A DNA stretch of 61,263 nt, counting the filler, from Squatina squatina (Eukaryota): assembly GCA_031763465.1 (NCBI GenBank). It is 3 parts of 3 records of this genome, joined end to end, with 100 filler letters (N's around TTAATTAATTAA, not from the genome) between each part and the next. Parts side by side here need not be neighbours in the genome. Positions count along the whole stretch, not along the records: positions 1 to 20,804 come from JARFOE010000234.1; 2 more parts are not named here. One strand, given 5' to 3'. A program made the translations under genes and the position numbers. This document shows positions 4,926 through 50,990 of this stretch, piece after piece. Under the pieces are notes generated by a model, which did not search any database, had not been told where the DNA came from, and saw only the letters and a list, made by a program, of their open reading frames with translations. How positions within the stretch are numbered: the first letter of the stretch is position 1; each line of letters begins with the position of its first letter.

Positions 4926-5057
4926 GGAGCTTGCATTCTGAACATGCTGATGGACTACCTGACGGAAGATGTTTTTAAAACCGGCATTATTCGTTACTTA
5001 CGACGCCATAGCTATGCAAATGCAAAAAATGAGGATTTGTGGAACAGTCTGACTAAT
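4926..5057 (+). CDS. ERAP1: ERAP1 internal exon (GACILNML)
   Basis: 132-nt exon (tgcag...gtaagc). Translates as [44 protein letters not shown]. Assigned to ERAP1 by strand and order. Confidence 0.85.
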
Positions 5058-7756: not shown

Positions 7757-7909
7757 GTCCGAAGATTTTTTGAATCTTTGAAGGATAATGGTTCACAGCT
7801 CCGGTGTGTTCAACAGGCAATTGAAACAATTGAGGAAAACATCCGATGGATGGACAAGAATTTTGTTAAGATCAGTACATGGTTGGAGAATTTAAAGACT
7901 CTGGATTAA
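7757..7909 (+). CDS. ERAP1: ERAP1 last coding exon with stop
   Basis: Acceptor ttttctag, then VRRFFESLKDNGSQLRCVQQAIETIEENIRWMDKNFVKISTWLENLKTLD*. Matches ERAP1 GSQLRCVQQTIETIEENIGWMDKNF. Confidence 0.93.
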   Translation, partial: VRRFFESLKDNGSQLRCVQQAIETIEENIRWMDKNFVKISTWLENLKTLD

Positions 7910-11116: not shown

Positions 11117-11740
11117 TCTGGGATGCAGACCATCAGGCCCTGGGGATTTATCTGCCTTCAATCACATCAATTTACCTAACACCATTTCCTGACGAATGAG
11201 CTGCATCGGAGTGTCAGCCGAGATTCTTTCTGCTCAAGTCCCTTGAGTGGAACTTGAACCCACAACCTTCTGACTCAGAGGCAAGGGTGCTACCCACTCA
11301 GCCATGGCTAACACACTAGTGCGTTGATGTAGTCTATATTGTTTTTAGCATGGCGTTTGATAGGATCCCACATGGTAGGCTGGTCATGAAAGTAAAATCT
11401 CATGGGATCCAAGGCAAAGTGACAAGTTCCCTTAGCAGAGGGGTCAATAACCAGGGGGCATAGTTTAAAAGTAAGTGGTAGGAGGTTTAAAGGAAATTTG
11501 AGGAGAATTCTTTTCACCCAGAGGGTGGTGGGCGTCTGCAACTCACTGCCTGAAAGCGTGGTAGAGGCAGAAACCCTCAGAGCATTTACAACGTACTTGC
11601 ATATGCACTTGAAGTGCTGTAACGTACAGGGCTACGGACCAAGAGCTGGAAAGTGGGATTAGGCTGGATAGCTCTTTGTCGGCCAGCACGGACACAATGA
11701 GCCGAATGGCCTCCTTCTGTCCTGTAACTTTCTATGATTT
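11117..11740. mobile_element. Nested repeats: CR1 fragment (-), SINE head (-), CR1 3' end (+)
   Basis: KSPGPDGLHPR motif; a SINE head at 11195-11312; a CR1 3' UTR ending in ccgaatggcctccttctgtcctgtaactttctatgatt. Confidence 0.8.
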
Positions 11741-11918
11741 TTAATAGCCTGTGATATCAGCATCATTTCTACTATCGCAACAAAATTATCTAAGTGTGGT
11801 TCCTTACGTTAGAAAGTTGTGAAAAAAATTCTCAATGTTCTGCACATTCACATATTTTGAAAATACAAAATTATTGAAACAATTATTGACTTGGCTCAAA
11901 GTGATTGTTGGACCGAAC

Positions 11919-11992
11919 CTTAGGATCAGGTTGCTTTGGAAATCTGTAATCAGGTGGTATCGATCCTTCAGTTTCTCCCACTCGTTCAGCTG
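11919..11992 (-). CDS. CAST: Calpastatin inhibitory subdomain B exon, copy 1 (5' end in gap)
   Basis: Translates as AERVGETEGSIPPDYRFPKQPDPK followed by donor gttcgg. Fits the calpastatin LGxxxxTIPPxYR motif. It lies tail-to-tail with ERAP1, as CAST does in human. Confidence 0.82.
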
Positions 11993-12092
11993 NNNNNNNN
12001 NNNNNNNNNNNNNNNNNNNNNNNNNNNNNNNNNNNNNNNNNNNNNNNNNNNNNNNNNNNNNNNNNNNNNNNNNNNNNNNNNNNNNNNNNNNN

Positions 12093-12390
12093 ATCCGCCT
12101 GCGCCTACTACTCTGCCTGGTGGTCACTCATCCCTTTTCTGCCTGTGCAGCCTTTACCTGCGGTGCGACCACCTCGCTAAACGTGCATTCCACAATGTCC
12201 TCAGCATTGCAGATGCTCTACAGTGAATCCATCCGCAGTTCTAGATCCGCAATGCAGTCTGCCAGTAGCTGCAGCTAGATACACTTCCTGCAGACATGGT
12301 CGCCAGGGAAACTGGAAGTGTCCCTGATTTCCCACATGATGCAGGAGGAGCATGCCATGGGGCCAAGCTCTCCTGCCATGATTTACCTTA
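12093..12390 (-). mobile_element. CR1 ORF1 N-terminal fragment (degenerate)
   Basis: Translates as CSSCIMWEIRDTSSFPGDHVCRKCI*LQLL...LELRMDSL, the zinc-finger/leucine-zipper start of CR1 ORF1. Confidence 0.7.
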
Positions 12391-12451
12391 GATATAGTTC
12401 TCCTATAGTGCTCAAAATTCTCCTTCAAGAAGAAAATCATTTGAGCTTTAC

Positions 12452-12514
12452 CTTCTGTGTTGCCTTTGGTTTTGCTCCTGGACCAGAGGAGGGAGATGTC
12501 AGTTTACCTTTATC
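12452..12514 (-). CDS. CAST: Calpastatin linker exon
   Basis: 63-nt phase-0 exon with strong sites (tttgtttttgcaacag...gtaaag). Translates as DKGKLTSPSSGPGAKPKATQK, resembling the DKDGKP... linker exons that follow subdomain B in CAST. Confidence 0.7.
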
Positions 12515-12939
12515 CTGTTGCAAAAACAAATTTAATCAGATTTGTCTGAGGGCCATCAGAGTTATTTAGAATTTAAAGCAGCTGGTAAAGCAACAACACA
12601 AATATAGTAAAATACTTCAGCATCCCAGAGAGAAATCACTCCAGTGTACATGTGGTGTGCACACACTAGTGTGAACCTCATTTGATCAGTAAACTCAATA
12701 ACCAGAGCATTTAGTTATATCGCTGGATTAATCAACGAGAGTATTGATGTGTATTGACTTTAGTTTTAGGATAACGATTCAGTACTTACACATTTATAAT
12801 TACTGTGATTTAAGGATCATTTCTGCTGTTGTACTATAATTACAAAATTTTTCTAGCTGTTCTGTATATAGAATATTTTGAAAATGGTGAAGTATTGAAG
12901 CAATTATTGACTTGGCCCAAAGTGATTGTTGGACCGAAC

Positions 12940-13022
12940 CTTAGGATCAGGTTGCTTTGGAAATCTGTAATCAGGTGGTATAGATTCTTCAGTTTCTCCC
13001 ACTCGTTCAGCTTTCTTCTTAG
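12940..13022 (-). CDS. CAST: Calpastatin inhibitory subdomain B exon, copy 2 (5' end in gap)
   Basis: Translates as KKKAERVGETEESIPPDYRFPKQPDPK followed by donor gttcgg. In phase with the exon at 12452-12514. Confidence 0.85.
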
Positions 13023-17425: not shown

Positions 17426-17611
17426 ATGATGAAACAAAAATGTTGTCTTCCGCTGCGACTTGTAGCTGTAGCGGTGATTGCAATTTGCTCTGCTCCGGAC
17501 ACTGCCAATGCAGACAAGCAATACGTTAATGAATGGGCAGTGGAAGTGGTTGGAGGACCTGAGGTGGCGAGAGCTATTGCCGAAGAACTTGAATATGATT
17601 TTGTGGGTCAG
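17426..17611 (+). CDS. PCSK1: Prohormone convertase 1/3 exon 1 (signal peptide and start of prodomain)
   Basis: Translates as MMKQKCCLPLRLVAVAVIAICSAPDTANADKQYVNEWAVEVVGGPEVARAIAEELEYDFVGQ, then donor gtaaat. Matches PCSK1 [31 protein letters not shown]. Confidence 0.94.
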
Positions 17612-32449: not shown

Positions 32450-32829
32450 TTTATCTTAGATATGGATGGGTCTTATTCCACAAGTATACAAATAGAGTTG
32501 AGCCTCACAGCTGGCTAAGGTTTACTTAAAATTATTCCCAATCCTGCTGTCATGCAGAAACTGACTCAACCTGACCCAACTCTCAGGCAAAAACCAACTT
32601 AATCTGACGCTATTTAGTGGAGGTAAAATCTCTGAAATAATTGCAGAAACAGTTATAAATTGTGATAGAGAAAACACAGAGGGGTGAGGCAGATGGAACG
32701 AATAGCCTCACTTATATATATACCGATCTTTCCGTGTGCAACATTTAATTTTTAAAATATGTAGATAAAGAAGGACATATTAAACTTTTTAATATGAAAA
32801 TCAAATGCATTTGTGTAGCAATTGATTAC

Positions 32830-33048
32830 TTTTTCCATCAGGCTTTCCTGAGCACTCGCCAGAACGCTCACAAACCCATCCAATGAGCTGAGGAAGTCTT
32901 GTCGTAAAGCGCTTGCCTGAGGACTGCTCAGCTCTCCCCAACCATCATTCATCTTCTTCAAAGCAGGAACAAACACTTCTGACAGGAGGTGTTCTACAGC
33001 TTTCAGCAGCCCAACATCAGATGTATCGAGGACATTAAAATTTACATC
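32830..33048 (-). CDS. DNAH5: Axonemal outer-arm dynein heavy chain (DNAH5 or DNAH5-like), N-terminal exon
   Basis: 219-nt phase-0 exon (tag...gtaatc). Translates as DVNFNVLDTSDVGLLKAVEHLLSEVFVPALKKMNDGWGELSSPQASALRQDFLSSLDGFVSVLASAQESLMEK, versus DNAH5 EVSFNMLD...IFIPAL...GWGEL...[25 protein letters not shown]. Confidence 0.85.
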
Positions 33049-43201: not shown

Positions 43202-43791
43202 TTAGTTGGCAAATCTTTTCTCAGTAGTGCTTTTACCAGAGTCTGAAGCAGCAGCTTGCTGCTTTTCTATGAGTTTTTTCAGTGAAGCAACTTCTGCACT
43301 TAAGTTTGCAATACCTTGTTTTAAGTACAAGTTCTCTGATTCCAAGTGTACTCCTTGATAAATGTTATTGCAAGCAAAGTCTTTTCCAGCAGCAAGCGAT
43401 TGGTTTGTTAGTGCAACAGGGGAACATGACCGCCGAATATTTTTATAAGCCCCTTCCAATTTCTCTTCACTTTCCTTTTGACGCCAAAGTTCTGGTTTGT
43501 GAGACCAATCATTGATGCTTGCTACTTGAATAGACAAAGGAGCAAGCGAAGGGTGTACTGGATTTGAAGCATTGCATTTAAACATTGCTGTACTGTCCAA
43601 TGGGTAAGGTCTTTTCGTAGAAATATTACTGGCAGATGATGGTTGTTTCTCTGGTGTTTCATAATATGCCTCCACATTCTCTACTTTAATCTGGATTGCT
43701 CTAGCCTTGATACGAAGCTTGTGAGGCAATGCAGAAGAGTTTGATTCAGGGACCTTAACTGTAGCATTGTTCACAATTTTGGGTTCCACAG
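43202..43791 (-). CDS. NFIL3: NFIL3/E4BP4, C-terminal half of the single coding exon (bZIP part lost in gap)
   Basis: Contains KVPESNSSALPHKLRIKARAIQIKVE, QVASINDWS and ENLYLKQGIANLSAEVASLKKLI...ASDSG, all characteristic of NFIL3. Confidence 0.96.
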
Positions 43792-49633: not shown

Positions 49634-50990
49634 NCAACATTGGACCCTGTCTCACTCCAACCACAAACGCTCTTTCACTCCACACTCAAACTCTCCCTCA
49701 CTCCAACCTTGCTCGCTTTACCACCCCAACCTCAAATCCTCCCTCACTCCAACCTCAACCCTCTCTCAATCCAATCTCGAACCCTCTCTCACTCCAACCT
49801 CGATCCCAGCCTCACTCCAATCTAAAACTCTCCCTCACTCCAAACTCACTCCCTCTCTCAGTCCAACCTCAAACCCTCTCTCACTCCAATCTCAAAACCT
49901 CTCTCACTTCAACCTCAAACTCCTCCCTCACTCCAACCTCAAATTCTCCCTCACTTCAACCTCGACCTTCTCTTATTCCAAACTCGAAGCTTCCCTCACT
50001 CCAACCTCAAACAACTCTCTCACTCCAACCTCAAACTCTCCCTCACTCCAACCTCGCTTGCTCTCTCATTCCAACCTCAAACTCTCCCTCACCTCAACCT
50101 CGACCTTCTCTTATTCCAAACTCGAAGCCTCCCTCACTCCAACCTCAAACAACTCACTCACTCCAACCTCAAACCTTTCTCCATCCAATCTAAAACCCTC
50201 TCTCACTCCAACCTCAAACTCTCACTCACTCCAACCTCGACCCACTCTTATTCGAAACTCGAAGACTCCCTCTCTCCAACCTCAAACAAATCTCTCACTC
50301 GAACCTCAAAACCTCCCTCACTCCAACCTCAAACCTCTCTCAATCCAAATTCAAACCCTCTCTCACTCCAACCTCAAAACCTCCCTCACTCTAACCTTGA
50401 ACTCTCCGTCACTCCAAACTCAAACCCACCCTCACTCCAACATTGAACCCTCTCTCACTCCAACCTCAAACCCTCTTTCATTCCAACCGCAAACTCACCC
50501 TCACTCCAGGCTGCTCGCTCTCTCACTCCAACCTTGAACCCTCTCTCAATCCATACTCGAAGCCTCCCTCACTCCAACCTCGAAAGCTCTCGCAATCCAA
50601 CCTCGAACCCACCTTCATTCCAACCTTGATCCTCTCACACTCCAACATCGAAACCTCTCTCATTCGAACTCACTTCCACTCTCGCTCCAACCTCCAAATC
50701 ACCGACTCTCCAAAGCAAACCGTCCCTCACTCCAACCTCGACCTTCTCTCAATCCAACTTCGAACCCTGTCTCACTCCAACGTTGAAAGCACCCTCACTC
50801 CAACATTGAACCTTCCGTCACTCCAAAATCAAACCCTCCCTCTCTCAAACATCAAAACCTTCCTCACTCCAACCTCAATCCCTACCTGAATCCAACATCG
50901 AACTCTCCCGCAATCCAACCTGTAACCCTCTCACAGACCAAATTCAAACCCTTCCTCACTCCAACCTTGAAATCTCTCACATGCCAACCA
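49634..50990 (+). repeat. Minisatellite with a unit of about 22 nt (CTCTCACTCCAACCTCAAACC-like)
   Basis: Dozens of degenerate tandem copies of CTCACTCCAACCTC; the + strand is very poor in G. Confidence 0.95.

Follow-up and report, generated by a model that had tools for sequence, protein, structure and literature searches.

Calpastatin in Squatina squatina: a tandem array of inhibitor domains whose B exons are probably kept alike by gene conversion

The window studied here, a 61,263-nucleotide stretch of Squatina squatina DNA (filler included), contains two nearly identical exons, and we consider it probable that they belong to a shark calpastatin gene with three or more B exons. This gene would be built from a five-exon unit repeated in tandem, it likely has about 7-10 inhibitory domains, and its B exons likely owe their resemblance to gene conversion and unequal crossover and not to recent copying.

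Calpastatin, a disordered protein, is the cell's brake on calpain proteases. Each of its A-B-C domains binds one Ca2+-activated calpain, with subdomain B occluding the active site, and in the textbook molecule four divergent domains bind four calpains. By this established biology, a molecule with additional domains would inhibit a larger amount of calpain. In the mechanism that we propose, phase-0 symmetry would allow units to be added or lost in frame, and ectopic pairing of units would lead to both unequal crossover and conversion. Conversion would have its centre on the B exon, overwriting it and leaving its flanks to drift, and a short-read assembly would break at an identical 77-mer, so that the remaining units would be lost or collapsed.

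The B exons and the repeated unit

Both exons lie on the minus strand. Copy 1 (11919-11992, G variant; AERVGETEGSIPPDYRFPKQPDPK) is the 3' 74 nt of a calpastatin subdomain-B exon and copy 2 (12940-13022, E variant; KKKAERVGETEESIPPDYRFPKQPDPK) the 3' 83 nt; 100-N gaps truncate both at their 5' ends, and the full exon, preserved in a contig described below (L005), measures 96 nt. An earlier note on this DNA had counted two differences in the last 72 coding nucleotides, and alignment confirms the count (3 of 74 over the last 74 nt): GGA/GAA is non-synonymous (Gly to Glu) and TCG/TCT synonymous. The unusual donor gttcgg that it reported is indeed found at both exons, in a common junction AAG/GTTCGG. 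In a self-BLAST the copies align over 156 nt at 91% (E 4e-56). Chance similarity of the two exons was rejected as an explanation, and so was a processed pseudogene, introns being present.

The introns that follow the two exons differ. The post-B intron of copy 2 (12515-12939, minus strand, 425 nt) has no LINE; its first ~50 nt are 94% identical to copy 1 and its distal part is ~20% away from the L005 unit. The proximal post-B intron of copy 1 (11719-11918, minus strand) contains 114 nt lacking in the L005 paralogue and leads to the 3' fragment of a LINE, in which a SINE-like element is nested (11201-11718, plus strand), shared with the L005 unit by descent (88% by BLAST, ~8% mismatch in ungapped columns). 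From the C-terminal motif in its translation the fragment would be of CR1 type, and the SINE-like label is likewise our assumption. The earlier note was right to place this insertion near copy 1 only, since the LINE follows copy 1 and is absent after copy 2. Its description of an intron likeness that fades gradually stands only in part: the first 50 nt are alike, with 3 differences, but the loss is a step, the next stretches showing 4, 3 and 8 differences per 10 nt. Downstream of copy 2 we also found a linker exon that the first reading of the sequence had not included, the B-to-C spacer (12452-12514, minus strand; 63 nt, phase 0, AG/GT ends), with 12 of 63 nt different from its L005 paralogue.

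When copy 2 was searched against its own genome, four matches were obtained: the two window copies and, on an unplaced contig of 5652 nt, G000:C203094 (L005), one at either end. A 77-mer at 11916-11992 is identical to both ends of this contig and marks an assembly-graph repeat junction; the identity stops at exactly 77 bases, as would be expected if the assembly graph had been built with k=77 and this were one of its repeat nodes. The interior of L005 holds predicted exons for a linker (63 nt), subdomain C (120), a second linker (48), subdomain A (90) and subdomain B (96), 139 codons in all, and each of the five is a multiple of three, in phase 0, with canonical AG/GT ends. Thus, two B exons lie in cis on L005, separated by one whole domain, in agreement with the earlier proposal that whole exon-intron units were duplicated.

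Three distinct post-B introns exist in the genome (copy 1, copy 2 and the start of L005), and there must therefore be at least three B exons, however the graph is walked. Against these, the A exon and the pre-B intron were each found once in genome searches that give lower bounds, so that two or more of each must be absent or folded into L005, as one expects if units were collapsed or lost. The calpastatin array is broken or collapsed in this assembly, a fragmented one of 1.15 million contigs. The suspicion that contig breaks point to further copies was well founded, because extra copies do lie outside the window and the breaks fall on the identical 77-mer. A Pfam search of the genome recovered only two B pieces, both below the cut-off, and a genome-wide search with a 17-nt B-core pattern gave six matches, the four known B pieces and two that proved unrelated on inspection.

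Another contig, L009 (G000:C1002722), has at positions 1-1953 a second-linker region with 7.8% mismatch to L005 joined directly to a C-exon region with 19.9% mismatch. It skips A, B and the first linker, and its C exon retains an open frame and a donor while the acceptor AG is gone. L009 would be a chimeric or decayed unit, of the type expected from unequal crossover.

That the gene is calpastatin, as first proposed, is borne out by its homologues and by PF00748 (Calpain_inhib). Among the best homologues, 18 of 19 matches are named calpastatin and one is hypothetical, and all 19 carry PF00748; the sole PDB match is calpastatin 3BOW_C, a weak one (E 1.1). Copy 2 scores 24.9 bits and is the only one of the three B exons above the 22-bit cut-off, copy 1 (19.7) and the L005 exon (21.3) being short fragments. 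The L005 A exon is 80-84% and the C exon 57-70% identical to named shark calpastatins; neither alone has a Pfam match. For the N-terminal L domain one matching exon was found, on an unplaced contig separate from the window (C523254; 76% to residues 79-116 of the Pristiophorus protein P0003). Terminal CAST exons were not found in the window by tblastn, the matches at 49.6-50.9 kb being low-complexity repeat.

The B loop starts with Val-Gly instead of Leu-Gly, in this genome and in 339 of 387 chondrichthyan motifs. Val-Gly, also seen in teleosts, is a conservative, class-wide substitution that marks no family boundary. PMC4057710 describes four calpastatin domains binding four calpains, with Leu-Gly and TIPPEYR as key elements and Leu-Gly reported as essential in mammals, and PMC3632108 gives calpastatin four domains with symmetric exons matching the domain structure. 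A calpastatin fragment also figures in a shark skin protein list in PMC10707392.

The CAST region is flanked by an exon of an M1 aminopeptidase (4926-5057, plus strand; PF01433, E 2e-10), whose last coding exon starts at 7757, and by the first coding exon of a proprotein convertase, divergent from CAST (17426-17611, plus strand; PF16470, E 6e-4, below cut-off). We take these neighbours to be ERAP1 and PCSK1 by synteny, ERAP1-CAST-PCSK1 being the human gene order. The M1 peptidase and S8 pro-domain exons have the expected orientations, in a scaffold order that spans 100-N gaps and is not independent evidence.

Other contents of the window were also noted. Between CAST and the convertase, a contig (13123-13749, plus strand) has a long, degenerate reading-frame-like stretch that is probably a mobile-element relic. 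Elsewhere, 32752-33048 (minus strand) is an exon-like open frame with no Pfam match, presumably similar to the N-terminal region of an axonemal dynein heavy chain; 43202-43789 (minus strand), in a different stretch of the window, encodes the C-terminal portion of a factor of NFIL3/E4BP4 type (PF06529, E 2e-49); and 49644-50967 is a C-rich tandem repeat of 23 bp in ~58 copies, with a higher-order period of 137 bp.

Domain number and homogenisation

The homologue searches returned 228 proteins, and B motifs were counted in a subset of 43, for which a single isoform of each species was picked by hand; the database calpastatins compared are predicted gene models. This count, a check that the earlier note had proposed, gave 7-10 domains in 20 of 22 chondrichthyan species, including sharks, rays and a chimaera (the exceptions are Narcine with 6 and Leucoraja with 5). 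Amniotes have four domains in nine of ten species (Rhynchocyon has five), amphibians have 5-6 (5/5) and teleosts 5 (6/6). Within a protein, mean domain identity is 0.60-0.92 in chondrichthyans versus 0.34-0.43 in amniotes, and internal domain pairs of teleosts reach 0.74-0.95. Pfam stretches number 9, 8, 10, 8 and 7 in the five chondrichthyan proteins checked, matching the motif counts in each, and the two counts agree in all seven whole proteins examined in this way. Thus, many domains are the expected shark state and not an innovation of this lineage, and the expansion would predate the elasmobranch radiation. By analogy with its relatives, this gene likely has some two times as many inhibitor domains as the four of mammals, and the expanded-domain protein that the earlier note had suggested can be rated likely.

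Some irregular arrays were seen in passing. The Rhynchocyon model (P0150) has five B motifs, with domain 3 apparently doubled (0.87 identity). In Heptranchias (P0023) an extra C exon stands in tandem, and in Pristiophorus (P0003) linker and C-terminal segments are repeated, both partial-unit duplications. In the teleost proteins P0098, P0112, P0117, P0058 and P0061, three near-identical internal domains stand between two divergent terminal domains, a layout that suggests an independent homogenised array.

Are domains more alike by lineage or by position? In domain trees of 90 rows each (quick IQ-TREE and FastTree runs on 124-144 columns, with many open forks), lineage prevails over position in Pristiophorus, Heptranchias, the carcharhiniforms and Callorhinchus. 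In fact, seven of eight Pristiophorus domains form their own clade, 99% identical, with support 99-100; seven of eight Heptranchias domains do so with support 88; and most carcharhiniform domains cluster together, while last domains group across orders. Domains of rays, lamniforms and carpet sharks are position-orthologous, and a same-species nearest neighbour was found for only 51 of the 90 domains. Lineage clades in some groups combined with position-orthology in others indicate that homogenisation is episodic, not universal.

In this genome, identity between the copies peaks over the B exon and ~50 intron bases. At near-neutral sites (B synonymous sites plus intron +7 to +50), 4 of 61 differ where 12.5 would be expected (P 0.003), a test in which the 50-nt boundary was set post hoc; synonymous sites alone give no significant deficit (P 0.11 for copy 1 versus copy 2, P 0.25 for copy 1 versus L005). 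All four assembled B pieces carry YRFPK, whereas 55 chondrichthyan proteins, with isoforms among them and hence not independent, have it in none of their 387 motifs. Lineage-wide signatures exist elsewhere too, YRFN in Pristiophorus and YRFT in all eight Heptranchias domains. Since even copies with a 20% difference in their introns have this private YRFPK in common, conversion is the best account. Gene conversion, and not a recent duplication, is the likely cause of the resemblance between the copies, and what looks recent is their homogenisation. Homogenisation had been the second option of the earlier note, and it fits better, given the identity patch at the B exon and the YRFPK motif in all four pieces.

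An old tandem duplication followed by purifying selection alone, with the inhibitory core and a splicing element conserved and no conversion, could yield a similar pattern. Comparison between species likewise shows the highest conservation in B and A (0.77-0.80, against 0.57-0.71 for the other segments), and the synonymous sites by themselves are consistent with such selection. The weak donor, GTTCGG or GTTTGG, may need an enhancer, and a splicing element in the intron behind it could mimic a conversion tract. We regard this explanation as unlikely, because it does not account for a lineage-private YRFPK in all copies, one of which has a 20%-diverged intron, nor for YRFN in Pristiophorus and YRFT across the eight Heptranchias domains.

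Age of the copies

The flanks of the copies argue against a very recent origin. Copy 1 differs from the start of L005 in 46 of 584 aligned columns (~8%), with indels of 114 and 20 nt besides, and the two share the LINE fragment together with the element nested in it; copy 2 differs from L005 in 54 of 264 distal intron columns (~20%). By comparison, contigs built from sequencing runs of related animals, which may derive from another unit, lie 3-5% from the unique parts of L005; these runs contain 6-7% of the sequence words and cover L005 at low depth, with matches dominated by LINE/SINE. As the copy flanks are more distant from each other than this, the copy splits probably predate those species splits.

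A recent lineage-specific amplification, with L005 as the collapsed stack of near-identical young copies, we judge slightly less probable still than selection alone. L005 is a perfect graph cycle, its A exon and pre-B intron were assembled just once, and Pristiophorus, narrowly the closest protein (109 of 139 residues versus 108 and 108), shows the very pattern in its seven 99%-identical domains. However, the window copies are old, their flanks exceeding in divergence the 3-5% of the related-species contigs (with the reservation on unit identity given above), and high domain number is ancestral. The earlier claim of recent amplification in this lineage thus fails on the ~8% and ~20% separating the flanking introns and on the domain counts in chondrichthyans (7-10 in 20 of 22 species). 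The expansion is thus not specific to this lineage, nor is it clearly recent. Some recent amplification could nonetheless coexist with tandem units and conversion as a further layer.

The two window copies are not alleles of one exon, the outcome that the earlier note had named as refuting it; an assembly artefact in which a scaffolder set such alleles in tandem draws on the fragmentation of the assembly and on the LINE/SINE insertion common to copy 1 and the L005 start, but it is highly improbable, as L005 has two B exons in cis around a whole domain, the intron of copy 2 is 20% diverged and LINE-less, which contradicts the allele reading for that copy, and a 2.4-kb flanking control (one only) has no second haplotig.

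Calpastatin beside known systems

The multiplication of the calpastatin domain is real and common to cartilaginous fishes, and there is fair evidence of episodic homogenisation centred on B. We envision calpastatin as an accordion, a broader idea to which we give even chances: a five-exon array of 7-10 domains in cartilaginous fishes would be re-homogenised periodically in each lineage, B-focused conversion sweeping one inhibitory sequence through all domains, possibly tracking calpains, and the four divergent amniote domains would be frozen and derived. The chondrichthyan expansion is already visible in public annotations, and it is already known that exon blocks of symmetric phase can be duplicated in frame and undergo conversion. 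In our literature search no publication turned up on how many calpastatin domains cartilaginous fishes have, and none stating such an accordion model; subscription papers on fish calpastatin could bear on novelty. Salem 2005 and Saito 2006 reportedly deal with fish calpastatin and may discuss domain number in fish. The accessible parts of PMC13664112 and PMC12650998 contain nothing on calpastatin domain number.

Among the database proteins compared, most cartilaginous fishes have 7-10 domains, amphibians and teleosts 5-6, and amniotes four, so that both domain number and homogeneity are evolvable. One can then ask if a molecule gains inhibitory capacity in proportion to its repeats, and if specialisation of domains (mammals) or their homogenisation (sharks) tracks the calpain repertoire. 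A practical warning also follows: short-read shark assemblies break and under-count the calpastatin gene.

Mammalian calpastatin (CAST; PF00748; rat domain 4, PDB 3BOW) has the same A-B-C anatomy and G-x4-[TS]IPPxYR core, and its neighbours are likewise an M1 aminopeptidase on one side and a proprotein convertase on the other. It differs in its four amniote domains at 0.34-0.43 identity, against 7-10 at 0.60-0.92 in most chondrichthyans, and in having L-G where the shark has V-G. Its exons, too, are symmetric and fit the domain structure, though in PMC3632108 human exons are of class 1,1, whereas those of this genome are in phase 0. The predicted chondrichthyan calpastatins (for example Cetorhinus P0001, Pristiophorus P0003 and Scyliorhinus P0020) have the same ~144-residue repeat and near-identical B cores; the L005 exons share 95-109 of 139 residues with ten elasmobranch calpastatins. 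This genome stands apart from them by its private YRFPK, and its C and linker exons are slightly shorter. Teleost and amphibian calpastatins also exceed four domains, but both their number and their mean identity (0.41-0.57) are below those of sharks.

Concerted evolution of tandem exon cassettes leaves repeats that are more alike inside a lineage than across lineages, terminal units that escape, and chimeric junctions. Intragenic systems of this kind resemble the calpastatin array in the last two respects, and in the first for some lineages (Pristiophorus, Heptranchias, carcharhiniforms and Callorhinchus) but not for rays, lamniforms and carpet sharks. The array differs from them in that the unit is 5.5 kb long and has five exons, with a ~130-nt patch around a single exon as its most homogeneous part.
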